A stretch of 61,533 nucleotides of DNA, counting the filler. It is 9 parts of 9 records of this genome, joined end to end, with 100 filler letters (N's around TTAATTAATTAA, not from the genome) between each part and the next. Parts side by side here need not be neighbours in the genome. Positions count along the whole stretch, not along the records: positions 1 to 15,217 come from SRR7504441_1131; 8 more parts are not named here. One strand, 5' to 3'. The position numbers were made by a program, and so were the translations under genes. Of this stretch, positions 188 to 42,837 are shown one piece after another. The stretch's first letter is position 1; each line of letters starts with the position of its first letter. The notes beneath the pieces were generated by a model. The model was given only the letters and a program-made list of their open reading frames with translations. It ran no database searches and was not told where the DNA came from.

Positions 188-1483
188 TCATTTGGTGATG
201 GTGACGTCGCTGCACGAGTTCCAAACCTGGGTCGACTCCTCGCAGTCCCACCGCCAGCCGAGCACCCAGTCGCCCGCTGGCAGGTCGGCCGGCAGCCGCA
301 GTGTGTCCACAACATCAACCTTGTACAGGTCTCCGTCGCCACTCCCAGAGCACTTGCACGGCCAAGTTCCCTCGGAGCGGTCATGCCCCGCCGGAGTGGG
401 CGGGCGCACATGCGCGTTGCGGCAGGCGGCCGGTTCATCGCATACTGGGTTGTAGCTCGAGCCCCAGTTGTACCATTCCCACGGCCCGCGCGGGAACGGT
501 CCACGGCGCCAGGTGGAGCCTTCGGGCATCGTGCCGACAGAGACGTCCGTGGCGTTGAACACGAGCTCTTGCCCGCCCTTGCCACCCCAGCGGAGCATGC
601 TCAAGCCGTCGGCGAACGGGACGGGGGTCTTCTGGAAGCACTGCTCACTGAGCTCCTGATCGGCAGGGCAGAGGCGGTACTGGTAGCCACCGCCATGCCA
701 GGCTTTTTGGACCCAGGAGACCCCCACCTCGTCGCCAGCGCGCCAGACCACGCCGGATGGACGGGCCGGCAGCTTGCTGCCCAGGTCGCCGCGCTTGGCG
801 TGGACGGTAGGCTGGTAATCGCCGCCTGCAGCTGCCGGGCCTTGGCCAGGGAGGACCCCACCAGCCAGACCGCACGCATCGGTCACCGGGGCCGAGCCCG
901 GGGCGCGCCATGGTGCAAACTGGAAGAAGTCGGTCTCACTGTGGCAGGGCGCGTCGATGTTGAGGGTGCGCAGCTCCCGGGCGCAGATCGTAGCATTGCG
1001 CTTGGGCACCTTGCAGATGGACAGCCGGCTGGAGCTTGGGTCGTCCGGGCGGGCGGCATGGTCGATCGGGTTGGGGCGCTTGGGGTCCGGCTGGATCCCG
1101 CGGGTAGGGTCCTCCCAGTCGGGAGCGTTCCCCTGGCCGGTCCAGATGAACTTGGGGTGCACCACTTGGCCGGTCCGGCCGTCGCACTCATCGCACGAGA
1201 TGTCTGCCCCACAGCCGGTCAGCGGACACACCGGGCGGGTCTTACCGCAACCGTTGTTGAACCAGAAGCAGGCTTGCCCGTTGTTGCCCGATACGTTGCG
1301 CGGGTCGGCAGACGCTGAGTCCGGGATGGCGCACCAGAACATGAACGGGATGGCCCCGGGGACGGAACCGTTCCAGGGGGCCACGGAGGCGTCGATGGCC
1401 TGCCGTGGTGGAGGCCAGGACACCGAACCGTGCGACATCGCGGCGGGGATGGCCAGCGCCAAGCACAGCCAGGTGAATGCCAT
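188..1483 (-). CDS. Secreted LPMO-like His-brace copper protein (one 42-nt intron, 1204-1245)
   Basis: Signal peptide MAFTWLCLALAIPAAMS is followed directly by His (HGSVSWPPPR). The second His lies in WHGGGYQYRLCP and the C-terminus reads WRWDCEESTQVWNSCSDV. An in-frame GTAAGA...CTGAC...CAG intron sits inside the ORF. Confidence 0.8.
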   Translation of the reverse strand: MAFTWLCLALAIPAAMSHGSVSWPPPRQAIDASVAPWNGSVPGAIPFMFWCAIPDSASADPRNVSGNNGQACFWFNNGCGKTRPVCPLTGCGADISCDECDGRTGQVVHPKFIWTGQGNAPDWEDPTRGIQPDPKRPNPIDHAARPDDPSSSRLSICKVPKRNATICARELRTLNIDAPCHSETDFFQFAPWRAPGSAPVTDACGLAGGVLPGQGPAAAGGDYQPTVHAKRGDLGSKLPARPSGVVWRAGDEVGVSWVQKAWHGGGYQYRLCPADQELSEQCFQKTPVPFADGLSMLRWGGKGGQELVFNATDVSVGTMPEGSTWRRGPFPRGPWEWYNWGSSYNPVCDEPAACRNAHVRPPTPAGHDRSEGTWPCKCSGSGDGDLYKVDVVDTLRLPADLPAGDWVLGWRWDCEESTQVWNSCSDVTITK

Positions 1484-1730: not shown

Positions 1731-2990
1731 TCAGCCCTTGCCCTCGAGCGCATCGAAATAACTCATAACGATCAGCACGCTGAACACGGCTATCTCCACT
1801 ATAATCAGCAGCACACTCGCCAACCTGAACTTGACTGCAAGCAGCCCCTGGACTGCCTCCAGCCCGGCTTCCCCGCCGCTCTGCACAACATCCGGCACCT
1901 CCGTGTTGAGCGCGCCCTCGACTGCCTCGATCCCCTGATTCAGCCGGCTCATGGCCACGTCTGAGGTCTGCTGGATTGTCTCAGCGTAGAGTTCGTCACC
2001 CCGGCCGCTTGCCCAGTCCACATAGGCAATTCTCCCAAGCCTGTGGAGCCGGGCCGCCATCAGAATCGAAGTCCAGGCCGAGTAGGCCGGTTCCAGGCTC
2101 ATCTGGAGCCCCCAGCAGAGCAGCACCACCCCGGCGTCCAGTCCGAGCCTCGGCTTGGTACACAGCTCACCCAGACCAATAAAATAACAATGCAGCAGCG
2201 TATCAACCAGGAAAAGCCAGTAAATGTCCGACCGCACCTGGTAGAGCGCCTCGGCGGCCGATGGCTCGTCCAGCCAGGTCTCCCACAGCGAGTCCGGCCC
2301 GAACTCAAGCAAAACAAACGCTACGAACATCCCGGAGACTATCAGCGTCAGCCCGACTACGTACACATGCACCAGTGGGTGGTCCAAGTAGAAGCGGACT
2401 CTCTGCAAGTACCAACCGGGCCGGTGGTTGAGGTCCTGGAAGTACTCCCAGTAGGTGCCGGCGTTGTACAGCGCGTACGGGATCCGGAGGCAGATGAGCA
2501 GTCCTACCCAGTCGCACGCGCCACCCAGCCAGCACTGGGCCAACTCGAAGTAGAGAAGCACTCCAATAACACCACAGTAGAGCACGTACGAGAGCATGGT
2601 GAACAGCCGGATCCCGTACACCATCAACAAGCAGAGCACGTCTATCACTAGAACAGACAATATGAACCGCGAGCCACCCTGCAGCGCGTGCGAGAGCAGC
2701 TCGAGCTTTGCGGGCGGCCCGAACAGCCTGTACCCAATCATGGCCTCCAGCGTGATGAAGAGCGCGTCGAGCGTGATGAGCAACGACATGACCAGTTTGA
2801 AGAGTGGGGCCTCGACCAGCTCGGCCAGCTCGGCCCGCAGGTTGGCCAGCGTGACCCCCGTGTTCCGGATGGCCGAGAAGTCGCTCTCGGCCATCATCTT
2901 CTCCGGGTCCAGCTCGATCAGCGGCTCGGTCCGATCCAGCCGCGAGAGCATCCGCTCCTCCATCGGGCTCGGCTCTGTAGAGCGAGCCAT
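1731..2990 (-). CDS. Membrane protein with two tandem Hv1-like voltage-sensor (S1-S4) domains and a C-terminal TM helix
   Basis: LLITLDALFITLE resembles Hv1 S1 (LVVLDALLVLAE), and GLLICLR resembles the start of S4. The second repeat has LDAGVV (S3) and ARLHRLGR (S4). ATG at 2990. Confidence 0.7.
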   Translation of the reverse strand: MARSTEPSPMEERMLSRLDRTEPLIELDPEKMMAESDFSAIRNTGVTLANLRAELAELVEAPLFKLVMSLLITLDALFITLEAMIGYRLFGPPAKLELLSHALQGGSRFILSVLVIDVLCLLMVYGIRLFTMLSYVLYCGVIGVLLYFELAQCWLGGACDWVGLLICLRIPYALYNAGTYWEYFQDLNHRPGWYLQRVRFYLDHPLVHVYVVGLTLIVSGMFVAFVLLEFGPDSLWETWLDEPSAAEALYQVRSDIYWLFLVDTLLHCYFIGLGELCTKPRLGLDAGVVLLCWGLQMSLEPAYSAWTSILMAARLHRLGRIAYVDWASGRGDELYAETIQQTSDVAMSRLNQGIEAVEGALNTEVPDVVQSGGEAGLEAVQGLLAVKFRLASVLLIIVEIAVFSVLIVMSYFDALEGKG

Positions 2991-3080
2991 GGCCCCACCA
3001 ACCGACACGATTCAACAGGCCGGCTCCAACGTAAAAAAACCGACAAAAACGGTCACCGGTGGCGCCACCTGCAAGCAAAG

Positions 3081-3979
3081 ATGCCGATGGATGCTGAGAC
3101 GAAGGCGCGGCTGGCGGCCGAGCGGCAGGCCGCGCGCGAAGAGGTAGCAAAGCGCCGGGCCGCGGAGGCCAACGCTGCCCCCCCGCCGTCGGCGCCCAAA
3201 CCGCGCACGCGCTCCGAGTCGCAGACGGCTCTGGACCAAGACATCGAGAGGGTCGAGGCCTCCCCGCGCTCCAGGGGGGCCGTGGCCGCCTCCAAGCCCA
3301 AGGGCGCCGACCCCGGACCGGACGGAATCCCCGGCAATCCGCTCACGCGCAACCCGGACCGGAAAGTCCTCGACTGCGGGTTCGCGCAAAACGATCGTGT
3401 GGCGCACGCCAAGCGCGGGCCCGGGCTGGTCCTCGGGTTCAGCGGGGACATGGTGATGGTCCAGTTCGACTCGGAGCCAAACGGGAAGCACAACTATAAG
3501 CACGACAAGGCCCGGCGCTGCCTGAGCTTCTCGGACGCCCCATTCTCGGGCCAGAAGCCGGCTCCGGCCGCCAAGTCCAAGGCCTCCGACAGCTTCGGGG
3601 CCCGCCCGGCGAACCGGAGCGCGCGCTACGAGGAGGAGGAAGAGGAGGAGGAGAGCTCGCCCTCGCCTATCCGGGCCAAGCCCGTGAGCAAGCCGAGCAA
3701 ACCTGTCAGCCTGCCCTCTGCTAGCACCCTCAATGACGAGGAGCGCGAAGAGACCGACAGGTGTGCCGGTCGACCGGGCGCCGGCTGAGCTGGTTGGGCA
3801 GCGGTTTCGCCCAGGGGGATCGGGTGAAGCACACTAAGCGCGGACTCGGGAGGTGCATCGGATTCTTTGGAGAATTTGTGTTGATTCAGTTTGATGACGA
3901 ACCGCACGGCCGGCACAAGTATACTCATGAACAAGCCCGGAAGAAGGTCTCGATCATCGGCTGGGAGAAGCAGGCCTAA
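3081..3979 (+). CDS. Protein with two Tudor/SH3-like beta-barrel repeats (intron 3761-3801)
   Basis: Removing the 41-nt GT-AG intron restores a second repeat, GFAQGDRVKHTKRGLG, matching the first, GFAQNDRVAHAKRGPG. The spliced CDS is 858 nt. Confidence 0.7.
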
Positions 3980-11500: not shown

Positions 11501-14039
11501 GCAAGAGGTGTTCCAGGAAGGGCTGATGATCCCTCCGACCAAGCTCTACTCCAAGGGCGTGCTCAATCTGGAGGTGCAGCAGCTGCTGCTCCACAATGTG
11601 CGGATCCCAGAATGGAACCGGTGCGACCTCAAGGCGTTGGTGGCCTCGTGCGAGGTGTGCAAGATCCGGGTGCAGCAGCTGTGTGCTCGATTCGGGCGTG
11701 AGACATACTTACAGTCGCTGGCGCTGCTGCTCCGGCGGAGCTGGAGCTCTATGCACGAGATAATCCAGACAATGACTGCGCCGCTGCATACCGAGTGGAG
11801 ATACTACTTTGAAGACTACGTGGATGATGATGGGCAGGGGCACGGCCCGCACCGGATCTCGTGTTCGATGGACAGGGTCTTCCACGAGACCACGCAGGAG
11901 TACCATATACACTTTGATTTCACTGGGACCGACCCGCAGACCCCTTCGGCCATCAACCTTTACCAGAACATCGAACAGTTCAAGATGCTAGTCGGCTCAC
12001 ACCTGACCCATTTCTTTGACCCAGAGATGAGCCCGAACGATGGATTCTATCCACTGATCGAGGTGCATATCCCCAAAGGCACCATCCTCAATCCGACCTT
12101 CCCAGCAGCTGTCTCCTGCTCAGCACCAGTGCTTGGCCGGCTGCTCGACGTGGTAAATGGTTTGCTTGGACAACACGCACCCGAGCTCATGTGTGCGGCT
12201 GGATACAGCGACCAGCCCACCCTCCAGTACTATGGGCAGGACGACGGCCGTGGCAAGCCATTCATGTACTACGGAGTGCTGTATGGCGGCGTCCCAGGCA
12301 AGCCAGTGGGTGATGGGCCTGACGGGCACTCGATCTGGCCGTCATACTCAAGTGTGCCTAACGAGTTCCTCGAGCGCGAGCTGCCCATCCGAGTGGAAGC
12401 TCGTGACACGGTGGTCGACTCAGGCGGTGCTGGGCTGCACCGCGGTGGCAACGGCGTCAAGCTGGTGTACAGGCTGCTCGCAGACGGGTGCATCAGCATC
12501 CACGACGACCGGTGGCTCACCAAGCCGTGGGGCGTGAACGGCGGCCGGGCAGCGCAGGGCTCGTCCAAATACATCTACAGGGTGTGTGCTGATGACCAAA
12601 TGAGTACAGATATGATGGAGCTTGTCCCGGCCAAGTGTGACCAGTTCCCTGTCAAGGCAGGCGATGTGCTCGTGTTTGTCACCTGGGGCGGCGGCGGCTG
12701 GGGCAACCCTCTGGCTCGGGATGTGAATCTAGTCTGGCAGGACATGAACTCCGGCCTGATCAGTATTCAGGGCGCACGGAACAATTATGGTGTAGTGATG
12801 ACTAAGCAGGATGGTGTCGACCTCAGGGAGACGGCAGCTCTCCGCCAAAAGCTCCAGAAGGAGCAGCTCGCGATGACTGAAGTGCGCAGGCACCACGACT
12901 TAGCGTTCGGGCCACATGCCAGCTTCGATTTTGGATGGAAATTCGGGATCCGTGCCACAGAGGAGAGCGTCACCGAGCTCCGGGCCAACTGCAAGGCCAA
13001 CACTGGCTATGACCCACCCCAGCCGAATGTGGTGCCAGTGCCAATGATTGCGGACCAGCCCGGGCAGTACGCTGGTGGAGCAGGGTTCCAGCCTTATGGG
13101 AGTCCCGGCAAGTGGACTCCATATGATGAGGGCGACCCTGTCTTGGCGGGTGCCTATGTACCTGATGCTATAATCGCTGAGCCAATGCCAATCCCACCGG
13201 ATCCGCATGCACCACACATTCCATCGCGGCCGCAACTGCCCACACAACGGCCACCAATCCCGATAACCGAATTCCCAATCCCTGATCTGGCGCCTCCTGA
13301 GGAAGTTCAAGAATCGATTCGGCTGAGTCCTGTGATGATGTCACCACCCGTCGAGCGGTCTCTGGCTCCAACAACAATGGCGCCGCCGTCGGACTGCCGG
13401 CTCCCTAGTCCACCAAGAGACGTGGATCCCAATCACCCATGGGACCCTCAAGTGTACTTTGACCCGGCCGCCCGCGCAATGGCTGCCCGAGCATCACCCT
13501 CTGTGGTCGCCTCGCCCGATCCATTGATGGCTGCCCCAACGGATCAACTTCTAGAAATCCCAGTTGCCACCAGCCCGCCACGGAAGCTCCGCGATGGCAT
13601 GATGGCAGACATGTCAGCTGGGCCACTCCTAGGAGCCGCTCGCCCGCGCCAAGAGTCTCCCATCAGCACGCGGGACCGGTTGGCAGCGCGGATGGCCCAG
13701 CCCTCACTCAACGCACGGGTGAGTCTCGAAGAGAAGCGGTCAATAGCAGAGGCGCGAGCCCTGGCCGAGGTGGCGCAGCACATTGTGCCACGGCGGTTTC
13801 ACGTGAGTGGGTTCGGGGACCGGTCTGTCTCACCAGTACGACAAGGCTCACCAGTACGGCAGCCCGACCTGAGGGCCACATCCCCACAGGAGAGTTTCCT
13901 CCAGCGCCACATGCGGGCTCAGCGAGAGGCAGTTGACAGGCCATCGGAGGCCATCCCGGGGCTTGACGGTCAGGCTCAAGATACTGGATTGAGCTCACTG
14001 CCCACCTCTCCGCTTAGATCTCGGTTCAGCGTCAACTAA
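8594..14039 (+). CDS. Fused hydantoinase/5-oxoprolinase A+B family protein with Pro-rich extensions (intron 9191-9230, about 1801 aa)
   Basis: A part: DVGGSFTD, HGTTVATNAILE, DMGG, GPESANANPGPACYGRGG and FGGAGPLH. B part: GHMTDVGG, QEGLMIPP, DSGGAGLHRGG and TWGGGGWG. A 40-nt GT-AG intron joins the two ORFs. Confidence 0.9.
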
Positions 14040-14197
14040 GCTGATCAGACACAGTCGACATATATTAGTATCATGATGGAGGGGCTATGAATCACATCTT
14101 AGTGATGTAATTTGACGCAGTACATGTAGCTAACGCCCTTCAGTTTTTATGTCAGTAAATTAATGATTGAAATCGTTGTAATCAGAAGGATCTTTAT

Positions 14198-15142
14198 TTA
14201 ATCAAACGTCCTGGTGGGCGTGAGTCCGATGCCACTAGTTTCCTCAAACTTTGTCTGTGGCGTGTAGTAGTCTTCATGCACATGTACCTCAAGCTCTGGC
14301 GTGAGCCCTGTACCAAAAATCTGAGGATTTGCAGCATGCTCCGCACTCTGGCTTGCAGCCGTCTTATTGAACATGTAGCGCAGTACTAAAAACACAACAA
14401 CTCCGACGAGCACCAACACTCCTGCAAATGCGCAAAGCACGATCTTGATTGTGCACCAACCGTGGCAACCGATGTCACCTTGCCCGTCCCGCCTGTCGAG
14501 CTTTAGGCAGGCCTCGGAGCCTTCGCTCTTGACGCACGCAGTTGCGTATGGGCAGCCACCCGGATGCGTCACCGGATGGAGTCCACCCTGCAGCGAGATG
14601 CCTCGCCGGACAGCTGCCGCCCGGGCCGCCGCCAAGCTGACCGGCGAGGCGACCGGCTCGCGGGAAAGAATCCACAGCCCGCCAAAGTAGTACGAGGCCT
14701 TACTAGTACACAGCCCGTCCTCGGCCTCCTCGCTGGGCTGGCCGGTGATAACCGCCCAGCTGTACCGCCCCTGCTGGTCCGCTCCCACAGCCACCACCCA
14801 GTGCTCCTCTCCGAAGAGCTCCCGAAGAGCTCCCGGTAGCCAGCAGGGCGCCAGCGCTAGCCGGCCAGGCTCGGAGCGGTCCCGAACCGTCGCACAGAGC
14901 GTGTCGCCCCCCAACCTGCTTGATGCGTGCTGTACGGACAGGACCTGGTGGCGCCCAGTGGGCTGGGCCTGGTCGGCGTAGGTACAGGAGAGCGGGACCG
15001 GGTCTCGGACGAGCTGGACAAACCAGGCGGCCCGGCCGAACTCAACGGGGTCAAGCGCTCGCCCCAGAGGCGACAGCGTCATGCAGCCGAGCGCCGCCCC
15101 GAGTCCGGATACATACATCATCAGCAAGAGTGCGTGCGCCAT
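14198..15142 (-). CDS. Lipocalin-like type I membrane protein
   Basis: Signal peptide, then lipocalin-like motifs (GRAAWFVQ, WVVAVG...YSWAVI, GLWILSR), then a C-terminal TM helix and a short tail. Confidence 0.6.
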   Translation of the reverse strand: MAHALLLMMYVSGLGAALGCMTLSPLGRALDPVEFGRAAWFVQLVRDPVPLSCTYADQAQPTGRHQVLSVQHASSRLGGDTLCATVRDRSEPGRLALAPCWLPGALRELFGEEHWVVAVGADQQGRYSWAVITGQPSEEAEDGLCTSKASYYFGGLWILSREPVASPVSLAAARAAAVRRGISLQGGLHPVTHPGGCPYATACVKSEGSEACLKLDRRDGQGDIGCHGWCTIKIVLCAFAGVLVLVGVVVFLVLRYMFNKTAASQSAEHAANPQIFGTGLTPELEVHVHEDYYTPQTKFEETSGIGLTPTRTFD

Positions 15143-15187
15143 TGAATGGACGCGTCTCTTGGGTTAATCAAGGGATTGCTCAGACAC

Positions 15188-15217
15188 GATGCAAAACTGA
15201 TGCAAAACTGATGCAAA
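15188..15217. repeat. 11-bp tandem repeat (GATGCAAAACT, about 2.7 copies) at the contig end
   Basis: Read directly; it runs into the N linker. Confidence 0.85.
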
Positions 15218-15317
15218 NNNNNNNNNNNNNNNNNNNNNNNNNNNNNNNNNNNNNNNNNNNNTTAATTAATTAANNNNNNNNNNNNNNNNNNNNNNNNNNN
15301 NNNNNNNNNNNNNNNNN
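15218..15317. other. Artificial contig linker
   Basis: N44-TTAATTAATTAA-N44, with stop codons in all six frames. Confidence 0.98.
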
Positions 15318-18300
15318 GGCGGCTACAACCTCTAAGAGCCTTGCGCACGGCCGGCATCTTCTTAACTGGCTCGACAAGATCATCAAACATGTCGGCGTAG
15401 CGCTCCAGGCTGTTGCGGCTGCGAAAACGCGAGTCGCCGTCTGTAGGTTGTAAGGGCGGCGTCTTTTTCCATGGTGGCATGCTCTGCGACTTTCTCCGTC
15501 CAGGTCGAGCCGTGCTAGAACAATCCTTGAGCGCCTGAATGATCTTTTTGGGTTCCTTGGTGCGGAAAGTGAGGGTCTGGATCCTCTGTTTGCTGTCACA
15601 TACCTCCAGCCCGAAGGAATCCTGAGAGGACAGCCACGTTTGAATTCGGTCAAAAGGATAGAAGTGAATTTTCTTTTGAGTCTCAGAGTCGAGCAAATTT
15701 ACACCTGGCTTTGCAACACAGATAATAACTCGGCTACTAATTTGTCTGATCGTCTGATCAATGGGTGCGACGACAAATTCTTGCGTTTTTCCGGCGTTTT
15801 GAGTCTGGTCACGGACTGGCTTGAGAGATTCTATGTCGTGCTGTGGGTTTTGAAGTGGTGGATACGTGACCTGAGGCTGCTTAGGTTTATGCTTTTTGGT
15901 CCAAGGGGGTATGGGCTGAGTGGTGTGGAATTCGTCGTGGACTGCCTTAGTTGGATGTGGCACTCCAGGTGATAATGGATCTCCTTCATCTTTACTCGGT
16001 CCACCGCCAAGGGAATCCTGGCCAGGTTTTGCACTCCGCTGCTTAGGCTTAGTCCGTTCAGCCTTTTTCTTCATGTGATCGTTTACAAACACTTCCGAGT
16101 CCCAGCGACTCGGCTGAAAAGAACGCTCATCCAGTCCAATAAGACCTGCACCCCAACTTGGCTCAGCTTTCTGATTCGACCAATCGGGTTTCGCAACCAC
16201 GCCCTGGAAGACGGGAGCTGGCTGTTGCCGGTTCAGCCCACGCTTCTCCGCGAGTAACTCTGCAGCTCGAGCTTTTCTTTCACCGAGCTTGTATCTTAGT
16301 GATTGAATTTGTTGCTCTAACTGCTTATTCTGACGCTCAGTTTTCTTCAGCAGCACCCGTGCATTAGCAAGCTCAAGATCCTTGTTGGATGCACATGATT
16401 TCAATTCTTGTGCCTTTCGCCGAATATCGATAGCGGCCTGTGTTGCCTCTTTGTCGCTTGAGTCCAGTTGCACAGCGGCGGCTGCCTTTTCGAGCAGCTC
16501 AGCAACTTTTATCAACTCAGCTGCATCCGACGTCTTCAGCGTTTCTAACTTTTCTAGTGTAGAGAAAACTTGCATAGCCATGGATTCTGGGAGTGAAACC
16601 GAGAGGCTTACGACCTGCTCAATCACATCCTGCTTCACTTCACGAAGAATTGGGTTCTTTCGTTTCTCGGCTGGTGGGGCTTGGCCCTTGATGCTCCCTA
16701 GGATTTCACACCACGTCTCATGCACCTCACCGCCATCCTTCTCAATGTTATCCCAAAACTCCCGTAGTAGCCACAATAGTTTCCGAAACTCAGACCTGGC
16801 CTGCTCAATCTGTGCCTGCTCTTCCATGATAGTCTCCTCCTTTTTCAGCAGTTCAGTCTCGAGCGCAGTTTGATCCTCTCCGTGCAGATCCTCAAGCGAC
16901 TCGAACATAATCTCAATTTGGACAACTTGAGCTTCAAAAGCGACAATGGCTTCTGAGTTGCACACCTTGCGAATCTGTACCAAGGCAGCCTTTAATAGTC
17001 GTGTCAAATCGGCTGCAGACGTGCTCTCTGCTGCTACTGCTTTTGGACTGCCAAGGGGCTGTTCAATGACCGCAGTTGGCAGTTGTTCAGCCGACGAAGA
17101 GCTGCTTGCCATGAGATGAGGAAGTTCCTGCTGTTGCTTTTGCACAATCACAGGCTGTTTCAATTCTGCTGGCGAGGCACTGACTCTGTTCTCAAGCAAA
17201 TCATTGCTCTTCCCCTCATCCGCTACTTGCCTAATCACCGACCTCTCTTTGGTACCAACTTGTTGTTCTGATACAATCGCTGGAGCACTGGTTGGCTCTA
17301 TTTCTTCTCGTGAGGGGAGCTGACCTAATGTTTGCTGTTCTACTGCAGGCTTAGCTGCTCTTTGGGTAGAGCTTGAGGGGGCATTTCCCGCCTCCAAAGC
17401 CGCACTAGGTTCTGATGGGCACTGGTTCTGAAGTCCTAGAGCAGCAGCGTTTCCAGGCTCTGTTTCGTCAGTCCAGGCTAATTTGGAGTTTGATTCCTTG
17501 CTTCTGTTCTCAAGTTTATGGACGAGGCTGAGAGCATGACTCCAACTAATAAGATTGTCTGCAAGGGCCAATTCTTTGGCGTCAATCAAATCTTTGCCCT
17601 TAGCATGTTCAAGTTCTGCCAGTTTCCTTCCCTTTCCAGGGACCATTCCTCTAATGATCTTTAGTTCCTCATCCCAGGCAAGGCGTTTGGCTGCTATCTG
17701 CAGGGACAGCCGGGAATGGGTGAACTCAGCCTCCAAATCTTGGAGCAGTGCAATGATTGCTTTAGAGGAAGGGTGCTGCATCGATGCTGCATTTATATTA
17801 ATAATTTCCTCCTCAGCAGCTGCAACTGCCACCCGCGACTCCTCTAGCTGCTCATTTGCTCCGTGAACAGCTGTCTGATGCTGCTTCAGCTCGGTTTTGA
17901 GCTGGTCAATCTCCACTTGCTGATGATAAGCTGCTTGCTTCTGAGCTTCCAATTGCTGTTGTAGCCTCACCAATGCCTTGTCTTGATCTTGCTCTGCCTC
18001 GAGACTCGACAGCGCAAGTCTCCCTGCTGGCTTCTCCCCCTCGGCTGGCTTTTCCACCTCTGCTGGCTGCTCACCCTCTGTCGCCAGCTCAAGTTCCTCT
18101 GCTATCAGTACCACATCAGCACGTGCCTGAGAGCTGGTATTTTCTTCTTCTAGATGCAGCCTGTGGACGTCTGCCGCAGCCGCCTCAATTGTTTGTTGCA
18201 ACTCTGAAGCCTTTGCTCCAGCATCCATTGTACCCTTGGCATGCTCTTGCATTTGTGCTGCTGCAGAAGCTGCCTTCGCCTTTTCAGCAGAAAGCTCACC

Positions 18301-20210: not shown

Positions 20211-20231
20211 CCCATCGATACTGGAGTGCTC

Positions 20232-20331
20232 NNNNNNNNNNNNNNNNNNNNNNNNNNNNNNNNNNNNNNNNNNNNTTAATTAATTAANNNNNNNNNNNNN
20301 NNNNNNNNNNNNNNNNNNNNNNNNNNNNNNN
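20232..20331. other. Artificial contig linker
   Basis: N44-TTAATTAATTAA-N44. Confidence 0.98.
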
Positions 20332-20333
20332 TG

Positions 20334-20759
20334 GTCGAGCTGTCGGAAACAGCTGCTGAGTGCCTGGAGTCGAAGACGGAGGTCAGGGACCAGGATAGGA
20401 CCGACACGCGCAACGAGCTTGTCAGTAAGATTGCTGAGAAATATGGTCTTACGCCAAGGTCTCATGCGACGTCACAAGTGGCAATGGTGGGTGCAACTGC
20501 CAAGTCCTCGGCGGCACAAGAGGGGTCTGACGCATCGCACGGGCCTGACGATACCCAGGAGGATGTAGAAATCCCGGAATCTTGGTTGCGGAGGGCTGTC
20601 AAGTCTGAAATGGAGGCTGGTACGCGGCCAAGGCTGATTCATGACAAGCTTGTCAATAAGTTTGTTGATAAGTACGGTCAAGATGTTAGTCCAAAGTCTC
20701 GTCGTGGTCGCGATAAAAAGACGCCGGCGTCCCCTTCAGGGGACGCCGTCATGGTATAA
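20334..20759 (+). CDS. Hypothetical protein, 5' partial
   Basis: The frame is open from the contig edge to TAA at 20759, followed by an AT-rich spacer. It has an internal repeat (LVSKIAEKYG / LVNKFVDKYG). Confidence 0.5.
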   Translation, partial: VELSETAAECLESKTEVRDQDRTDTRNELVSKIAEKYGLTPRSHATSQVAMVGATAKSSAAQEGSDASHGPDDTQEDVEIPESWLRRAVKSEMEAGTRPRLIHDKLVNKFVDKYGQDVSPKSRRGRDKKTPASPSGDAVMV

Positions 20760-20946
20760 CTCATTTTGCTCAAAATTGTGCGACTGTGCACGACCCTAAT
20801 GAATACAATTAATATATTGCTACGAGTACTTGTACGTACACAGCCCTGGTATTATTACATGTACAATCATGTAGTAGTGCCATTCGAAATATCCACGTAT
20901 TTCAACGCAATGCACGATTGGTGTTTATGAACAGACTATGATCAGA

Positions 20947-28982: not shown

Positions 28983-31900
28983 TCAATAACCGAGGCCAAG
29001 ATCACAAGGTTTCTTCGCACCTGACATCGCCGCTGCTAAAGTTTTCACCACAGCGGCAGCCCTCTCCTCCTCTATGCCGGGAAGTCCAATCCCGCCACCA
29101 TAGTGCGGCGTCATCAGGCAATTTTCAAGTGTGTGGAAATCGAATTTGCTCGAACGGAAGTTTTGTGTGCTGGCATCGTCTGCAATGCCCATAACTCCGG
29201 GTTCCTGCCACCACACCTGCCCCACTGTCAGGTGTGCGTTAATTAAGGGCTTTTTTACGTCAGCAGCATAGCCCAGCCGTCCACTACTGACATGTTGCCA
29301 CAGGGCCTCCTCATCAACCAGCTCAGCCCTCGCAACATTGACGATGTTGCACCCGTCGGGACAGGCCTGCAGCATGGCGGCATCAAGCAGGCCGCGTGTC
29401 TCTTCAGTGAGCGGTGCAGTGAGGATCACTGCATCAGCTTGGTGCAATAAATCGCGCAACATGCCCGCAGGGTGTACTGTCACACCTTGGTCGCACTCTG
29501 GCTCCACGACACTCCTCCGTGTGGCCAGTACTGTAACGCCCATCGCTTGAAGCGTTCGAGCAACGTGCCAGCCCACTGACCCGAGGCCTACCACTACAGC
29601 TGTCTGACAGTACACCAAGCGGCACCCAGATTCAGGGCTCTGTGAGCGCTTCTTAAAGCTCCAGTCACCAGAGCGGCATGTTCGATTTGCCGTCATGAGT
29701 CGCCTGTTGAGCGCCAGCAGTAGCATGAGTGCAGTCTCCCCAGTGGCTCTGCAGTTGTGGTGCACATTGTACACGCCCCCAGGGACTCCGGCAGATTCTT
29801 CAACTGCAGACTTCACGCTGGTGGGGATGCCTGCATGTGGAATCACAATCATGCCAGGCTTGTGCTGTCTGATCCACTCAGCCTCGATATTCTTGCCAGG
29901 TATGAGTGCGGCTGTCAGGTTGGATGGCGGCATGGCTGGGGGACAGGTTACTGTCCAGTCAAGCCCTTGTGACTGCACTTGCTCGGCTACCAGGCCGGCC
30001 AGAAGTGGCCAAACTCTGGCTGCGCTTGGGTGGACATATAGCTCAACTCTGCTGGAGGCTTTGGTGCAAACGAGCTGCCAGGCAACAAGAGCAAGCACCA
30101 CACGACAGGCCACAGCATCTGGCCCGGAGCTTACATCAAACATATCTTGGGCATCCTGCAGGTAAGGGTGCAACGAGCCACCAGCCAGCACTCGCTCCAG
30201 CGCATTGGTACATGAGACACAGAGGGCTTGACCAGCAGCTAGTTGAACCTCGTCGATTCCCCCCAACATTGTCTGGGCTGGTCGCTTCAGCCCTCTGACC
30301 AAGGCTAGCTCATCCACTGTGGGAGCCTTGAGGTCCAAGTGCAACCTCACCAGAGCCATCAGCAGCAAGGAATGAGCCTCAAGCCGCTCACTAGGCTCAA
30401 GCTCGCCCGCTTCGGAGCAGCACAGCACTTGAGGATCACCGATGCACCCCAGCTCATCCACAAGCCGTTGTCGCATGTGCTCACTCCCACTGTCAGCCGC
30501 CAATCTGCAAGGAGCGGCCGCCTGATACTCGCTGGCAAGCAACCCGATGGCTTCAAGCTCTGAGTCGACCCAAGGAATGTCCGAGCCCCTGCCCCTCGCT
30601 TCCAGCTGCAGCCGGACACAGCGGCGCGCCAGCTCGAGCAAGTGGAGCCGAGTGCCGATGTGGTTCAGGTTGTATCGCATGACGCCGCCGTGCGCTGGAG
30701 TCCTCTCGAGGCCATACACCTCTCCTAATGGACCAGGGCACTGGCAGAGCACAGCCTGAATCTGCCTCAAGTCCTGGCCACTGAGCTGCAGCTGAGCTGC
30801 AGCATGGGTGCTGTCCAGGTGACGCGAATCGCGCGCGCCAACAATGAGACACCCAACCGCCGGTCGGGAGAGGACCCATGCTGAGGCGACCATGGCGATC
30901 GTAGCACTGTGCCGATTCGCCACCTGTCGCAGCACCTGGAGCAGATGCTGGAACCGTCCCCATCCGCCAAACTCCTGTATGATGAGCGCGTACTTGGTAA
31001 GTGACCGGTTCTCTTGCGCAGCGGCCAGGTCGGGGGAGTCGACCCCGAGCCAACGATCTGTCAGAAAGCCTCCCGCGAGCACACCGTAGCATGCCAGCCG
31101 GGCGCCGCAGTCCAAACAGAGCTGGACCATCCCATCGCTCTCCGGCCGCCGGTCCAGCAGCGAGTACTGTACCTGACTTATAGCCACAGGCACACCCGCA
31201 TCGACCATCTCTGCCATCCTGCGGGTGCTGAAGTTGGTCAACCCGATTCGCCTCACCAGCCCTTCTTGTTTGAGCCTGGTGAGTGCCAGAGCCGCCTGCA
31301 CGTAGCTGCCCGCGCCATACTCCCACCAGTGGAACTGCACCAGATCCAATTGCTGCTGCCTCAACCGGTTGAGCGACCGCAGCACAACAGCCGCCACGTG
31401 CTCGGGAGTGAGGTCTCCAAGCACACGGCGGTCAGGGACTAGCTTAGTGTGGACCCGGAGCGCCGGCTGCTTCCCGCGCGCCGCGTGCACTCCGATCAGC
31501 TCCTCGACCCCGCTGTAGATGTCTCCGCAGTCCACACAGTGGTACCCAGCCCCTGCCGCCGAGTCCAAATCTGCCACAGCTCTCTCGCTGTCGAAACCAC
31601 CATGGTGCCCGGTCGACAGCTGCCAGCCGCCCCGTACAACCACCGGGCAGTTCTCATACCCGAGCCCGTCAGCCCGTCGGATCGGCCCGGGCCTGAGCTG
31701 GTGCTGCAGCCGGCGCGCGTGCATTGTCATGATCTGGCCCATAAAGTCGAGGCTCGGCCGCTCAGCCGCACACGCCACAAGCTCCATCCCGCGCGGCCAC
31801 AAGGCCCGGTCGCAGCAGCCCAGCATCCACAGCCCGCAGTAGTACCGGGCGTAGGCCGGGGCGTCCTCCCTCGCCTGCCGAGCCGTGAACCCGTCAGGCA

Positions 31901-32351
31901 TCGGCCCAGCCGGCAGCTCCGCGGCGGCATCCCCGGCTCGCAGCACCGCCTCCACCCGCTCGGCGGCTGCATCGCCCCCGTCGGCCGGCCCGGAGCGATA
32001 CAGCGCCAGCAGCGCGTGCATCACCGGGCGTGGGTCCGCAACCGCAACAGGCAGCTCAGCGGCGGCGGCGGCAGCGGCCACCGGTCGGCGGGCCCCGTCA
32101 GCCACGTCGGCCTCCACGCGGGAGAGCAGCCGCCAAATGAGCTCCTCGGCGTCCTGTCCGTTGACGGCCAGGTCCTGCTCGAACTGGGCAGCCGCCTCCA
32201 CGAACCGACCGGCCAGGTATCCAGCCAGCCCCCGCTGCCAGAGCCGAGCACGACCCGCCGGGCCGGCCGCCGCCCACAGCCCGTCGAACAGCCGCACCGC
32301 CCGCCCGATCTCGCCGGCCGCCAGCAGCTCGGCCGCCTGCTCGGCTGTCAT
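28983..32351 (-). CDS. Three-domain fusion: NlpI-like TPR, aldo-keto reductase and D-2-hydroxyacid dehydrogenase (intron 29217-29258)
   Basis: TPR: LWQRGLAGY...QFEQDLAVNGQDAEE. AKR: DCGDIY, VHTK, QFHWW, GLTNF and QYSLLDRRPE. Dehydrogenase: GLGSVG, PLTEETRG, NVAR, DVWWQEP (after splicing) and TPH. Confidence 0.85.
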   Translation of the reverse strand: MTAEQAAELLAAGEIGRAVRLFDGLWAAAGPAGRARLWQRGLAGYLAGRFVEAAAQFEQDLAVNGQDAEELIWRLLSRVEADVADGARRPVAAAAAAAELPVAVADPRPVMHALLALYRSGPADGGDAAAERVEAVLRAGDAAAELPAGPMPDGFTARQAREDAPAYARYYCGLWMLGCCDRALWPRGMELVACAAERPSLDFMGQIMTMHARRLQHQLRPGPIRRADGLGYENCPVVVRGGWQLSTGHHGGFDSERAVADLDSAAGAGYHCVDCGDIYSGVEELIGVHAARGKQPALRVHTKLVPDRRVLGDLTPEHVAAVVLRSLNRLRQQQLDLVQFHWWEYGAGSYVQAALALTRLKQEGLVRRIGLTNFSTRRMAEMVDAGVPVAISQVQYSLLDRRPESDGMVQLCLDCGARLACYGVLAGGFLTDRWLGVDSPDLAAAQENRSLTKYALIIQEFGGWGRFQHLLQVLRQVANRHSATIAMVASAWVLSRPAVGCLIVGARDSRHLDSTHAAAQLQLSGQDLRQIQAVLCQCPGPLGEVYGLERTPAHGGVMRYNLNHIGTRLHLLELARRCVRLQLEARGRGSDIPWVDSELEAIGLLASEYQAAAPCRLAADSGSEHMRQRLVDELGCIGDPQVLCCSEAGELEPSERLEAHSLLLMALVRLHLDLKAPTVDELALVRGLKRPAQTMLGGIDEVQLAAGQALCVSCTNALERVLAGGSLHPYLQDAQDMFDVSSGPDAVACRVVLALVAWQLVCTKASSRVELYVHPSAARVWPLLAGLVAEQVQSQGLDWTVTCPPAMPPSNLTAALIPGKNIEAEWIRQHKPGMIVIPHAGIPTSVKSAVEESAGVPGGVYNVHHNCRATGETALMLLLALNRRLMTANRTCRSGDWSFKKRSQSPESGCRLVYCQTAVVVGLGSVGWHVARTLQAMGVTVLATRRSVVEPECDQGVTVHPAGMLRDLLHQADAVILTAPLTEETRGLLDAAMLQACPDGCNIVNVARAELVDEEALWQHVSSGRLGYAADVKKPLINAHLTVGQVWWQEPGVMGIADDASTQNFRSSKFDFHTLENCLMTPHYGGGIGLPGIEEERAAAVVKTLAAAMSGAKKPCDLGLGY

Positions 32352-32547
32352 CGTGGCCCTGGCAAGCCGGGCTGGCAGCTCCCCCGAAGCTCCGCGCGAC
32401 TGAGAAAAACCCGGCCGTTGACCGGTCTCGCGACGTGAGCGCGACCGGATCACGCGTTACAGTGGTACGGCTCACACGTCGCTGCTCATCACCCTTGCAG
32501 CAAGCAGGTGTCGCAGCCTAGGCTTGCACCAGCGCCCGACCAGCCAG

Positions 32548-39377: not shown

Positions 39378-42347
39378 ATGAGCAATCATCGGGGCGAGGA
39401 GCACGAGTACTACCGGCGGCACCGCGTCACCGGCGGGCCCGCCCCGCTCCCCCCGCCGGTGCGCAGCTTTGGAGCGGCCCCCTTCCCCCGGCTGCGTCCG
39501 GCGCTCCTGGCCACTGGCTGGGAGGCCCCCACCCCGGTGCAGGCGGCCAGCTGGGCGGCGCTCGCAGCCGAGCGAGACCTTGTGGCCATCGCCCAGACTG
39601 GGGCGGGCAAGACGCTCGCCTACTTGGTCCCGGCGCTGCATGCGTGCCTGCTCGCCGAGGCCGGGGCTCCCACCGCGCTGGTGCTGGCACCCACCAGGGA
39701 GCTGGCCGTCCAGATCTACCAACAGGCCGAGCAGTTCGGGGGCCGCGACGCCCGGTGCGTTTGCTGTTGCGGCGGGCGCGATCTCGAGCCCCAAATGGCC
39801 GCGCTGGCGACTGGTAGCCGGATGGTGGTAGGGACGCCCGGCCGGCTGCTCTACCTGTGCGGCCGGGGGGCGGCTGACCTGACTAAGGTGCGGTTCTGGG
39901 TGCTGGACGAGGCCGACCGGATGCTAGACATGGGCTTCGCCCCGCAAGTGACCTCGCTTGCAGCTGACCTGCCTCGAGACCGTCGGACTGCGCTGCTGAG
40001 CGCCACTTGGTGCTCTGAGCTGGATGAACTGTCGGAGCAGCTGCTGAGCAAGCCGCTGCGCTTGTTCATCAACCAGTCGGACCAGACCGCTGCCACGCCG
40101 TGCAGGCAGATCGAGCAGGCGGTGGAGGTGCTCCCTGCGGAGTCAAAGCTCACCCGACTGCTCCAAGCGCTCGCCCAGCTCCCCGAGGCCAGCAAGGCTC
40201 TAGTGTTCGCCAACACCAAACGAGGCTGCGACGAATTGGCCTCTCAGCTCCGCTGGAAAGGGTTTGCCGGGGCTGACGCGATACACGCCAACCGAACCCA
40301 GTATGAACGGGAGGTGGCTCTCACAGCCTTCAAGTCTGGAGAGTCTCCGGTGCTGGTGGCTACCGACGTGGCGGCCCGTGGGATCGACGTGAGCGGGATC
40401 GCGCTCGTGGTGAACTGGGACTTCCCCTGCACGCTCGGAGCGGCCGGGGTAGAGGACTACGTTCACAGGATCGGGCGGACGGCGAGGGCCGGGGCGACAG
40501 GCAAGGCGCTCACCTTCTTCCCGACCAAGCCCGACGACAAACACCCGGCCAACTCGCACCACCTTGTCAAGCTGCTCCGGGCCTGCAGCATGCCGGTATC
40601 AGACGCGCTAGCGAGACTGGACCGAGGCGACACTGTCTCGGCCCGGAACCAACGTAAGCACGGGAAGCAAATGCAGATGGTGGCTGTCAGCGGCTCAGCC
40701 GCACAAAGGGCCCGCCGATTCGACTTAGTGAAGGAGCTGCAGGCCGCGGGGGACGCGCGCGATCGGGCAACGGCCGAGCAGGTGTGGGCTCGATTCGGGG
40801 CTGAACAGCTACCTCATTCGGTGTATAGCTTTGCGGCCGGCGTGAAGGCGGCAGTGAGCTGTGGGGATGTGGCGAGGGCCGCGGCAATGGTGGCCCAGAT
40901 GAGTTCAGAAGGGCTCCAGCCGAATATCGTAGTGCACACCACGCTGCTCAAGGGGTATGCAGCGGTCGGTGACATGGCCGGTGCTGAGCGCCAAATGAGC
41001 GAGATGCTTTCAAGCGAATCTGCAATCGATCTGCGGGCAGCCAACACCTTCCTCCGAGGGTGCGTCAGGGTAGGAGCAGCCGCGGCCGCGCTGCGTGTGT
41101 TCAACAAAATGGAGTCCGAGTGGGGGCTACAGCCCGATGCAACTAGCTACAAGTATGTCTCACGCTTGCTCGCCCAGACGCTTCAGTACCAAAAGCTAAA
41201 GAAGATGCTAAGCAAACTCCGAGCCGCCGAGCGCAAAGCCGATAAGCAGGCTGCCCGCGTGCTTAGTGAGTTGGGGAATTGGACCGCCATGCACCTGGAC
41301 TTAGCGGGGGCGGCGGCTGTGCTTGGCAAGTTCAAGACAGCCCGAGCCAATCTGGATAGAGCATTACAAGTGGCTGCAACCAAGCGGCCCGACACGCTGT
41401 TCGATCTGACGCGCAGGGAGGAGCTGGAACGGGCAGCGCGGGTGTGGGAGCCTTTCGTGGCGGCGGCCGAGCTTGCGCCGGGGATTGAGCGGCTGTTCGC
41501 CCGGGTGCTGCTGTTTGGTTCGCAGCTTGGACTCGAACAGGCGGGCGAGTCGGGGCCTGAGGTGGCAGCGGGGCTGGTTCGTCAGCTGCAGGAAACTTTC
41601 GGGCTCGGGCAGATGGGCGCTGCGCTGGAGGCCGAGGCTGCGAGGAGGATACACAGCTGCATTTCGGAGCAGGGGCAGCTCCGGTGGAAGCGAGTGTTCA
41701 GCGCCAAGCGGAAGCGCGGCAACGGGACTGAGCTGCCTGTCAAGATGGAGATTTGCTGCGGCAGTGGCGACTGGGTGGTGGCACAGGCGGCTGCGGAGGC
41801 TGGGGTGGCCAACTGGGTGGCAGTTGAGCTTCGACACGACCGGGTGCACAGCGTGTGGCAGAAGATGCTAGCCCGCGGTCTCGACAATTTGAGCGTTGTG
41901 TGTGTCGACGCCAGCAGGCTGCTCAAGCAACACGTCAAGCCTAGCTCGCTTGCGTGTTGCTGCATCAACTACCCCGAGCCGCCGCACTGGACTGGTAACG
42001 CGCAGGCTGAGAGCATGTTGCATTTGCTCTCGCCCCAATTTTTCCGGCGGGTGCATGCGGTGTTAGAAGCTGGCGGCAGGCTCACTATATTATCCGACAA
42101 CCAGCAATACTGCCAGTCACTGGCTGCGGAGATGGGTAAGCTGCGCGGCCGTGGGGCGCACCCGCTGTTTACAAATACACGGCTGGATGAAACTAGCCAG
42201 CATGGAGCGTTCCAAGAGATTGAGGTGCATTGTGGGCTTCCGGGAGCAGAAAGTGGGCATATAGTTCAAGAAAGTTCGCAATTCGACCGCTTTTGGGCAA
42301 ATGGACAATATACAAACCGTTATTTTATTGCGGTAAATAAAGCTTAG
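39378..42347 (+). CDS. Fusion of DEAD-box RNA helicase, PPR repeats and TrmB-like tRNA m7G methyltransferase (989 aa, single ORF)
   Basis: Helicase: Q motif, AQTGAGKT, PTRELA, TPGRL, DEAD, SAT, TDVAARGID and HRIGRTAR. About three or four PPR repeats (e.g. PNIVVHTTLLKGYAAVGDMAGAERQMSEM). TrmB: MEICCGSG, VAVELR, NYPEP and ILSDN. Confidence 0.9.
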   Translation: MSNHRGEEHEYYRRHRVTGGPAPLPPPVRSFGAAPFPRLRPALLATGWEAPTPVQAASWAALAAERDLVAIAQTGAGKTLAYLVPALHACLLAEAGAPTALVLAPTRELAVQIYQQAEQFGGRDARCVCCCGGRDLEPQMAALATGSRMVVGTPGRLLYLCGRGAADLTKVRFWVLDEADRMLDMGFAPQVTSLAADLPRDRRTALLSATWCSELDELSEQLLSKPLRLFINQSDQTAATPCRQIEQAVEVLPAESKLTRLLQALAQLPEASKALVFANTKRGCDELASQLRWKGFAGADAIHANRTQYEREVALTAFKSGESPVLVATDVAARGIDVSGIALVVNWDFPCTLGAAGVEDYVHRIGRTARAGATGKALTFFPTKPDDKHPANSHHLVKLLRACSMPVSDALARLDRGDTVSARNQRKHGKQMQMVAVSGSAAQRARRFDLVKELQAAGDARDRATAEQVWARFGAEQLPHSVYSFAAGVKAAVSCGDVARAAAMVAQMSSEGLQPNIVVHTTLLKGYAAVGDMAGAERQMSEMLSSESAIDLRAANTFLRGCVRVGAAAAALRVFNKMESEWGLQPDATSYKYVSRLLAQTLQYQKLKKMLSKLRAAERKADKQAARVLSELGNWTAMHLDLAGAAAVLGKFKTARANLDRALQVAATKRPDTLFDLTRREELERAARVWEPFVAAAELAPGIERLFARVLLFGSQLGLEQAGESGPEVAAGLVRQLQETFGLGQMGAALEAEAARRIHSCISEQGQLRWKRVFSAKRKRGNGTELPVKMEICCGSGDWVVAQAAAEAGVANWVAVELRHDRVHSVWQKMLARGLDNLSVVCVDASRLLKQHVKPSSLACCCINYPEPPHWTGNAQAESMLHLLSPQFFRRVHAVLEAGGRLTILSDNQQYCQSLAAEMGKLRGRGAHPLFTNTRLDETSQHGAFQEIEVHCGLPGAESGHIVQESSQFDRFWANGQYTNRYFIAVNKA

Positions 42348-42556
42348 CATCTTATTACTGAGAGCTGTTCGGCCGCCGGAGCACATCGGCGATGCTGCTG
42401 TCCTCGAGCAGCTGCACGGCCGGATCTGGTCAAGCTGCACAGCCGGCAAGCAGCACTACCGGTAGGCTGGATCCTAGCACTACAGTAACTACTCGTAATG
42501 TTACGTAACTTACGTAACAAATTCCCTTTTGAGTAACTTTTGTAACGATTTGCCTT

Positions 42557-42656
42557 NNNNNNNNNNNNNNNNNNNNNNNNNNNNNNNNNNNNNNNNNNNN
42601 TTAATTAATTAANNNNNNNNNNNNNNNNNNNNNNNNNNNNNNNNNNNNNNNNNNNN
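42557..42656. other. Artificial contig linker
   Basis: N44-TTAATTAATTAA-N44. Confidence 0.98.
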
Positions 42657-42780
42657 CGCAACCGCCATTGCCAACGGAAAAAGCCCGATTGATGGATAGC
42701 CCTGGAGGAGCGTAGAAAATATAGTTACGCAATATAGCGATAGTACCGTTATCTAATTACCGAGTTGTACGGTATTTCAT

Positions 42781-42837
42781 TTTCAAGGAACGATCGAGCG
42801 ATTTCAAGGAACGATCGAGCGGTTTCAAGGAACGATT
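42781..42837. repeat. 21-bp minisatellite (TTTCAAGGAACGATCGAGCGR, about 2.7 copies)
   Basis: Units start at 42781, 42802 and 42823, with no spacers between them. Confidence 0.85.

Follow-up and report, generated by a model that had tools for sequence, protein, structure and literature searches.

Positions 1731..2990 on the minus strand of a 61,533-nucleotide stretch of DNA (hereafter the window, which joins parts of nine records of one genome, the first being SRR7504441_1131) encode a protein, P0001, that very probably carries two voltage-sensor domains (VSDs) of the Hv1 type in one chain. P0001 is predicted to be a nine-helix membrane protein, in which a short cytoplasmic linker connects the tandem Hv1-type VSDs (domains I and II), and a helical segment and an extra C-terminal transmembrane helix come after them. 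The S1 Asp and the S4 Arg triplet are not found together within one VSD of P0001 but are split between the two domains, the Asp lying in domain I and the triplet in domain II. The best explanation overall, held tentatively and at somewhat less than even confidence, is that the tandem VSDs form a covalent pseudo-heterodimer in which domain II would be the sensing half and a proton pathway would run via domain I or the interface between the domains. P0001 is known here from its gene sequence, comparisons and predictions alone; its residues are numbered from the GTG codon that opens the reading frame, and subtracting 6 gives the numbering from the ATG.

The best relative of both halves among solved structures is Hv1 (HVCN1), represented by 3WKV, a chimeric mouse Hv1 structure (PMC6392501), and by 5OQK, the human Hv1 VSD. 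When the single P0001 sequence was compared with the PDB at E<=10, only 3wkv_A (E 0.0094, residues 45-176) and 5oqk_A (E 0.7) were retrieved, both via domain I. A profile of domain I (alignment A2, made of domain I of P0001 and the fragments P0003, P0008 and P0006) matched 3wkv_A with E 3.6e-7 and 5oqk_A with E 5.6e-6 from S1 to the first S4 Arg, the next of its 32 rows at E<=10 being a bacterial sodium channel (0.1) and, from 0.16 up, retroviral integrases at chance level. The profile of the 11-sequence family (A1) reached the same two structures via domain II, with E 3.1e-14 for 3wkv_A and 5.2e-13 for 5oqk_A, ahead of human TPTE2 (1.9e-7) and Ci-VSP (8.9e-4); of its 14 rows at E<=1, those from 0.02 on were calcium and sodium channels. 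The proposal of an earlier note, made from the letters of the window, that two Hv1-like VSDs share one chain is borne out by these two profiles. Moreover, the relative P0007, which aligns with P0001 in one stretch (residues 42-393, E 2.5e-19), retrieved human Hv1 only from the PDB at E<=0.01, via its domain II (E 1.3e-4). The Pfam family Ion_trans (PF00520, gathering cut-off 25 bits) is above cut-off in P0007 (28.6 bits, 2 stretches) and in the further relative P0009 (26.5 bits), and is not reached by P0001 or its closest relative, P0002. Among 18 collected VSDs, BLASTP matched domain I to domain 2 of P0014, another tandem protein (1.3e-6), and domain II to domain 1 of P0014 (2.1e-6), E-values that are valid for that 18-sequence set only. 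Finally, the look-alikes of P0001 in the ESM Atlas, which are leads only, were ion-transport clusters both for the whole protein (0.90-0.87) and for domain I (0.93-0.90). The link of domain II of P0001 to Hv1 is partly transitive, and this transitive homology is sound.

The two halves are also related to each other. When the domain I and domain II sub-alignments were compared by hhalign, a match of 104 collinear columns (S1-S3) was obtained with a probability of 84.6%, an E-value of 6.8e-6 and a score of 39.1, over which the two halves are ~14% identical. None of 60 column shuffles reached this score (maximum 17.6), and the reversed control gave 10.6. The P0001 family appears to have arisen by internal duplication of an Hv-like VSD.

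The gene lies in an open frame at 1731..3008 on the minus strand, which comprises 425 amino acids if the GTG at 3008 is taken as its start. An in-frame TGA is found upstream at 3014-3012, and the first ATG, in the context gccATGg, lies at 2990, so that the extent 1731-2990 given in the earlier note stands: from this ATG, one open frame codes for 419 amino acids. Relatives are collinear with P0001 over this model, P0002 with 56% identity (223/395) and P0007 with a tblastn E-value of 9e-27 over residues 1-379. The features of the gene are as follows, where hHv1 is human Hv1.

1731..2990, minus strand: coding sequence of P0001, single exon, from the ATG at 2990 to the TGA stop at 1733-1731, 419 amino acids
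2814..2990, minus strand: N-terminal segment, residues 7-65, predicted cytoplasmic, its last ~20 residues conserved (G51, T53, R58, L61, V65; conservation count, positive-inside tally)
2454..2813, minus strand: VSD I, S1-S4, residues 66-185, Hv1-like with a degenerate S4 (domain-I profile against the PDB)
2766..2768, minus strand: S1 residue Asp81 of domain I, which aligns with the selectivity-filter Asp112 of hHv1 (HMMER alignments to 5oqk and 3wkv)
2511..2534, minus strand: S3-S4 loop of domain I, C159-D166, with an invariant Q-C-W...C-x-W, predicted outside (conservation count, HMMER and block alignments)
2454..2510, minus strand: S4 of domain I, residues 167-185 (alignments; AlphaFold confidence, pLDDT, below 50)
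2388..2453, minus strand: inter-domain linker, residues 186-207 (~22), predicted cytoplasmic, with no coiled-coil-like stretch (alignments)
2007..2387, minus strand: VSD II, S1-S4, residues 208-334 (family profile against the PDB)
2337..2339, minus strand: Val224 in S1 of domain II, in the D112 column (block alignment, profile alignment to Hv1)
2031..2051, minus strand: S4 motif of domain II, R320-L-H322-R323-L-G-R326 (RxHRxxR), against R205-x-W207-R208-x-x-R211 of hHv1 (alignments)
1854..2006, minus strand: post-S4 segment, residues 335-385, predicted helical and cytoplasmic, poorly conserved between clades (1/50 columns invariant; model)
1755..1853, minus strand: ninth, C-terminal transmembrane helix, residues 386-418, hydropathy peak at 396-414, present in both clades (hydropathy, alignments)

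Kyte-Doolittle peaks and the positions of charged residues fit the order S1-S4, S1-S4 and a final helix, whose peak of 2.92 at residues 396-414 corresponds to the one extra C-terminal transmembrane helix announced in the earlier note. The inner loops hold 6 Lys or Arg in 40 residues and the outer loops 3 in 59, a tally that favours a topology with the N-terminus inside and S4 of domain I crossing the membrane. No Pfam family was reached by P0001 at E<=10, in agreement with the claim that it has neither a pore nor a phosphatase domain; it has four-helix VSDs homologous to Hv1 and no pore domain.

The Hv signature combines RxWRxxR with an S1 Asp (PMC4969798, PMC10377628). The four motifs on which the earlier note was built could all be located: LITLDALF at residues 77-84 (window 2780-2757), LRIPYAL at 174-180 (2489-2469), LDAGVV at 290-295 (2141-2124) and RLHRLGR at 320-326 (2051-2031). 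At the D112 position of S1, domain I has Asp81 and domain II has Val224; as had been claimed, the S1 Asp is missing from domain II, and the claim can be refined in that the core of this helix is devoid of any acidic residue, Asp209 and Glu235 standing at its ends. RxWRxxR is found in neither domain: the three Arg of S4 in domain II are in register within RxHRxxR, and the only Arg of S4 in domain I precedes I-P-Y. The latter Arg, R175, occupies the R205 (R1) position, with Pro177 at W207 and Tyr178 and Tyr181 at R208 and R211. The S3 Asp said to be absent from domain I is indeed absent, Tyr144 being found at the D174 position, and the claim can be refined in that an acid, Glu155, is present at the D185 position. 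In domain I, the loop between S3 and S4 aligns with the His193-bearing loop of Hv1 (HMMER and block alignments). In domain II, the residues at other known positions of hHv1 are Phe266 (F150), Asp269 (E153), His273 (K157), Asp291 (D174) and Gln302 (D185), and its S1 opens after the linker with an invariant D-x-P-x-x-H-V (D209, P211, H214, V215).

P0001 belongs to a small unnamed eukaryotic family with two clades. An exhaustive search of representatives, covering 1.84 billion proteins, yielded 12 at E<=0.001; of these, P0010 and P0012 were dropped as repeat proteins, and P0014 was treated separately as a member of another family. With P0001 and P0002 included, 11 sequences make up the family alignment, of which only P0001, P0002 and P0007 are full length. 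A word-indexed protein search retrieved only P0002, to which P0007 was added when a profile was used. In prokaryotic genomes, 38 pattern matches were obtained with the single P0001 protein and none was confirmed, by a method that reaches close relatives only. The two repeat proteins, P0010 (669 amino acids) and P0012 (370 amino acids), are highly repetitive and match P0001 at residues 186-247 only, which cover the linker and S1 of domain II, near D-H-P-L; their matches (10 stretches, E 8.6e-14, and 6 stretches, E 8.6e-8, respectively) were treated as repeat-driven.

In a tree of the individual domains, the clade of the window (P0001, P0002 and P0003) is supported at 93/89 (domain I) and 100/100 (domain II), and the sister clade (P0007, P0006, P0008 and P0009) at 95/93 and 87/79. 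The fragments P0004, P0005, P0011 and P0013 were placed in the window's clade by alignment alone. Forty-two columns are invariant across both clades, 11 of them in S3 to S4 of domain I (including Y153, E155, Q158, C159, W160, C165, W167, G169 and P177), and those in S2 of domain II are R259, I262, Y263 and F266. P0001 is 63% identical to P0002 in domain I and 58% in domain II, and 30% against 23% identical to P0007. Domain I is the better conserved half and not a decaying relic. The two clades compare as follows at the positions that matter in Hv1.

Domain I, S1 Asp (D112): Asp in 3/3 rows of the window's clade and in 2/3 of the sister clade, with Ser in P0008; 5/6 covering rows in total
Domain I, S4 Pro (W207 column): 3/3 in the window's clade, 4/4 in the sister clade
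Domain I, Arg at the R1 column: 3/3 in the window's clade, 0/4 in the sister clade, where an Arg instead follows Pro-Tyr/Phe
Domain I, acid in S2: 3/3 of the window's clade have it at the E153 column, against 0/3 of the sister clade, which has it one turn of the helix further inward
Domain II, D112 column: Val in 2/2 of the window's clade, Asp in 3/3 of the sister clade (P0007, P0006, P0009)
Domain II, S4: RxHRxxR in the 3 complete rows of the window's clade, RxWRxxR in 2/2 of the sister clade (P0007, P0009)
Domain II, gasket Phe (F150): 4/4 in the window's clade, 3/3 in the sister clade
Domain II, acid at the E153 column: 4/4 in the window's clade, 3/3 in the sister clade
Domain II, acid at the D174 column: 5/5 in the window's clade, 3/3 in the sister clade
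Domain II, D185 column: Gln in the window's clade, Glu in the sister clade
Domain II, K157 column: His in the window's clade, Lys or Glu in the sister clade (K/E/E)

The degenerate, proline-bearing S4 of domain I is, by this comparison, a trait of the whole family, whereas the loss of the Asp and Trp of domain II appears specific to the window's clade. The complementary loss of motifs described in the earlier note is real in P0001 and in the 56%-identical P0002, but it does not represent a symmetric split dating from the duplication: because the sister clade retains the S1 Asp and RxWRxxR in domain II, the loss in that domain would be clade-specific. The clades have kept reciprocal subsets of the Hv1 residues.

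Tandem proteins of a more canonical kind are also present in public assemblies. P0014 (436 amino acids), P0015 (342 amino acids) and P0016 (480 amino acids) have two Hv-like VSDs per chain, and Pfam Ion_trans matches each of them in 2 stretches. P0014 and P0016 have an S1 Asp and the protist-type motif RxWRxxRxxH (described in PMC10377628) in both halves, and P0015, a relative of P0014, is devoid of the start of its first half. These proteins align collinearly with P0001, domain to domain, but their linkers and tails are long and charged, and the ninth helix is missing. In the domain tree, which has 18 rows and 138 columns with long internal branches and leaves the deeper placement unresolved (53/75), P0016 has its halves as sister branches (support 97/99). 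The approximately unbiased (AU) test rejects the grouping of all first domains in one clade (p 0.0057) but not that of the two domains of the window's family (p 0.34). P0016 at least appears to have duplicated independently, and its sister halves together with the AU test suggest that the tandem form arose more than once. One ancient tandem duplication common to the P0001 family and the canonical tandem Hv proteins was considered and discarded (AU p 0.0057). No description of a natural tandem Hv or tandem VSD-only protein was found in the full-text literature searched, of which coverage is limited, nor did the terms looked for bring up a tandem Hv in the main text of two recent reviews, 'Voltage-Gated Proton Channels in the Tree of Life' (2023, PMC10377628) and 'Voltage sensors' (2024, PMC13095418).

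Among known systems, Hv1 resembles P0001 in having S1-S4 domains only and no pore domain, and two VSDs per functional unit (PMC7456152), as in the P0001 chain. Domain I shares the S1 Asp with it, and domain II the in-register S4 Arg triplet, the gasket Phe and the acids of the inner part. Unlike in Hv1, the VSDs of P0001 are in one polypeptide and non-equivalent, neither of them unites the S1 Asp with RxWRxxR, the position of the Trp is occupied by His (domain II) or Pro (domain I), and the post-S4 coiled coil of Hv1 has as its counterpart a helical segment (in a low-confidence model) and the ninth transmembrane helix. TMEM266 (c15orf27, HVRP1) is, like domain II, an Hv1-related VSD with three S4 Arg and no S1 selectivity Asp. 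It was compared with P0001 by description only: it has a single VSD, a coiled coil and a long disordered tail and keeps the Trp of RxWRxxR, unlike P0001, which has a second, Asp-bearing VSD, no Trp and a C-terminus of ~90 residues ending in a transmembrane helix, and which lies outside the TMEM266 class as defined by a single VSD, RxWRxxR, no S1 Asp, a coiled coil and a disordered C-terminus. The voltage-sensing phosphatases (VSPs) TPTE2 and Ci-VSP are the next-best solved relatives of domain II and, like it, are devoid of the S1 Asp and the S4 Trp (PMC10377628); unlike them, P0001 has no phosphatase domain by Pfam and is no VSP. Finally, engineered tandem dimers of Hv1 have covalently linked subunits and are a laboratory means to make the halves differ (PMC4969798), but they consist of two full channels, whereas P0001 is the product of a natural gene with diverged halves.

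How P0001 might work can be considered from the way Hv1 works. In Hv1 each VSD is sensor, gate and pore at once, which is unusual among voltage-gated channels. Domain II, with its three S4 Arg in Hv1 register, gasket Phe and both inner acidic countercharges, would be the voltage sensor. On its own it probably conducts no protons, because Val stands at the position of the selectivity-filter Asp. Domain I has almost no gating charge and a proline-kinked S4, yet it keeps the S1 Asp, the acid at the E153 position, an outer Glu and the Arg at the R1 position, and may provide the pathway. The two domains would pack as a covalent pseudo-heterodimer and be coupled like two Hv1 protomers, which gate cooperatively (PMC4969798, PMC7456152) and contact each other along S1 and from S1 to S4 (PMC7456152), although how their coupling crosses the membrane interface is debated (PMC7456152). 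The published behaviour of Hv1 mutants gives further precedents: Trp207 substitutions leave proton conduction in place and make gating faster, the double mutants R205A/R208A and R205A/R211A still conduct, and neutralisation of D174 shifts activation by -111 to -142 mV (all PMC4969798). Owing to the short linker, S4 of domain I would be forced to lie beside S1 of domain II. A proton pathway in domain I or at the domain interface might then be gated or tuned as S4 of domain II moves. Candidate sites of regulation are the Cys/Trp loop, which is conserved and predicted to face outward, and the inner pair of His. That such a divided proton pathway exists, with domain II sensing and domain I conducting, is possible but doubtful. 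That the jobs of one Hv1 subunit are split outright, with a charged but impermeant domain II and a domain I that holds the selectivity Asp and is opened in trans via the VSD-VSD interface, appears unlikely.

Several observations weigh against this explanation. The selectivity filter of Hv1 is formed by the S1 Asp together with the R3 Arg (PMC7456152), and domain I has no Arg at the R2 and R3 positions, R3 being the filter partner of the Asp. Its gasket position is occupied by Leu (Phe150 in Hv1), and the relative P0008 has Ser in the Asp81 column. As the sister clade has the full Hv signature in domain II, ancestral conduction was probably through domain II, and the window's clade may simply have lost conduction. 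P0001 is by itself a weak matcher, and the strong E-values depend on profiles that include the sister clade. Domain II of P0001 alone has no PDB match at E<=10, the profile of domain II from its own clade only (A4, mostly S2-S4) gives just 3wkv_A (0.012) and TPTE2 (0.013), and P0001 reaches no Pfam family at E<=10. Sampling is thin, 3/11 family sequences being full length, and the two clades provide a single comparison, in which the polarity of changes is not established.

The predicted structures are of low confidence. The AlphaFold model of the whole protein (11 sequences) has a pLDDT of 57.5 and a predicted TM-score (pTM) of 0.36, and that of the core (residues 45-340, 13 sequences) a pLDDT of 66.4 and a pTM of 0.43, with S4 of domain I below pLDDT 50. 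Foldseek searches of the PDB gave no match at E<=0.001, out of 441 matches for the whole protein and 284 for the core at E<=10. Both models consist entirely of helices, in the number expected; in the core model, pLDDT is 72-83 for S1-S3 of domain I and 59-78 for domain II, and in the low-confidence whole-protein model DSSP assigns helices to residues 336-367 and 372-422. Every weak match listed for the core was a voltage-gated channel or VSD, and those listed for the whole protein included one exception, CydDC at rank 47. Compact superpositions were obtained only on the VSD of Ci-VSP (136 columns, root-mean-square deviation 4.8 Å, target-normalised TM-score 0.65) and on one VSD of plant TPC1 (133 columns, 3.8 Å).

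The main rival to the divided pathway is that the window's clade has lost proton conduction and that P0001 is a non-conducting voltage sensor or regulator like TMEM266, any output passing via protein contacts of the post-S4 helix, the ninth helix or domain I. It is consistent with the Val at the D112 column and the missing Trp of domain II, given that hHv1 D112V gives no current (PMC4969798), with the precedent of c15orf27, in which RxWRxxR is present and Asp112 absent (PMC4969798) and which, as TMEM266, is reported to be a voltage sensor without proton current whose S4 supports voltage gating (PMC6392501), and with the absence of two of the three S4 Arg from domain I. However, Pfam finds no effector domain in P0001, simple loss fails to explain why the S1 Asp of domain I is kept in 5/6 rows within the better conserved half, and the Arg at the R1 column and the acid at the E153 column of domain I are retained in the window's clade. 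This rival is a serious one but falls on the unlikely side.

A further alternative is that domain II conducts by itself via two gained histidines, His322, which replaces the Trp of S4, and His273, which stands at the K157 position of S2; domain I would then be structural or regulatory. Histidines placed in S4 are reportedly able to carry protons, as in work on Shaker. His273 is present in 5/5 rows of the window's clade and His322 in the 4 alignable rows, against K/E/E and Trp in the sister clade, and domain II has the full charge array and the gasket Phe. Nevertheless, this alternative is improbable, as His322 is two residues off the Arg positions and probably on another helix face, there is no acid in the S1 core of domain II, and neutral substitutions of D112 in hHv1 lead to anion conduction or, for D112V, to no current (PMC4969798). 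Lastly, that P0001 is no voltage sensor at all, but an unrelated transporter or a chance open reading frame (ORF) with S1-S4-like hydrophobic stretches, could be suspected from the lack of a Pfam family and of a significant Foldseek match and from the GC-rich DNA with long overlapping ORFs on both strands (for example 2305..3150, minus, and 2043..2651, plus), but it is very improbable and is contradicted by the profile searches, in which the PDB matches below E 0.01 are only Hv1 and VSP voltage sensors, by relatives at 56% and 24% identity that are collinear over the whole length, by the clean shuffle control of the internal repeat, and by listed Foldseek matches that, CydDC in the whole-protein search apart, are all voltage-gated channels or VSDs.

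The window is eukaryotic and gene-dense, its neighbouring ORFs having PPR, ankyrin, EF-hand, RPGRIP1-type C2, oxoprolinase and Hsp90 domains by Pfam, and its source is an intron-poor eukaryote. No second copy of the Hv1-like gene was found within the window by tblastn, and the 61.5 kb as a whole yielded neither a tRNA gene nor a match to any Rfam family at gathering score. GC content per 2 kb ranges from 0.47 to 0.69 across the window, with values of 0.47-0.57 at 14001-22000 and 42001-50000 against 0.59-0.69 in most other stretches. The immediate surroundings and other ORFs are listed below.

188..1483, minus strand: Cys-rich ORF of 431 amino acids whose N-terminus is hydrophobic and signal-like; neither Pfam (E<=0.05) nor the PDB (E<=0.1) gave a match
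2991..3080, no strand: gap of 90 bp to the divergent neighbour, between the ATG at 2990 (minus) and the ATG at 3081 (plus; DNA read, ORF list)
3081..3979, plus strand: divergent neighbour, its ATG at 3081 lying in ORF 2688..3788, with two copies of a ~60-amino-acid motif (31/64 identical, E 2e-19); no Pfam match
28983..32453, minus strand: ORF of 1156 amino acids with aldo/keto reductase and D-2-hydroxyacid dehydrogenase NAD-binding domains
39378..42347, plus strand: ORF of 989 amino acids with DEAD-box helicase, Helicase_C, PPR repeats and Methyltransf_4

The two motif copies of the divergent neighbour lie in two reading frames (ORFs 2688..3788 and 3761..3979), and this change of frame suggests an intron or a frameshift.

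A natural, fused and differently specialised pair of VSDs such as that of P0001 would amount to a ready-made asymmetric Hv dimer, with an evolutionary control built in, namely a sister clade with a complete domain II and other tandem proteins with two complete halves. If the jobs of the Hv1 subunit were indeed split, coupling between VSDs alone would suffice to gate a proton pathway, and the two clades would represent a natural swap experiment, the sister clade keeping the complete signature in domain II. If P0001 conducted protons, it would show the minimal sufficient set of residues and whether the pathway is gated in trans; if it did not conduct, it would be a second, independent Hv-derived sensor-only protein beside TMEM266, in protists. 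P0001 may show how voltage sensing and proton conduction can divide between partner domains.

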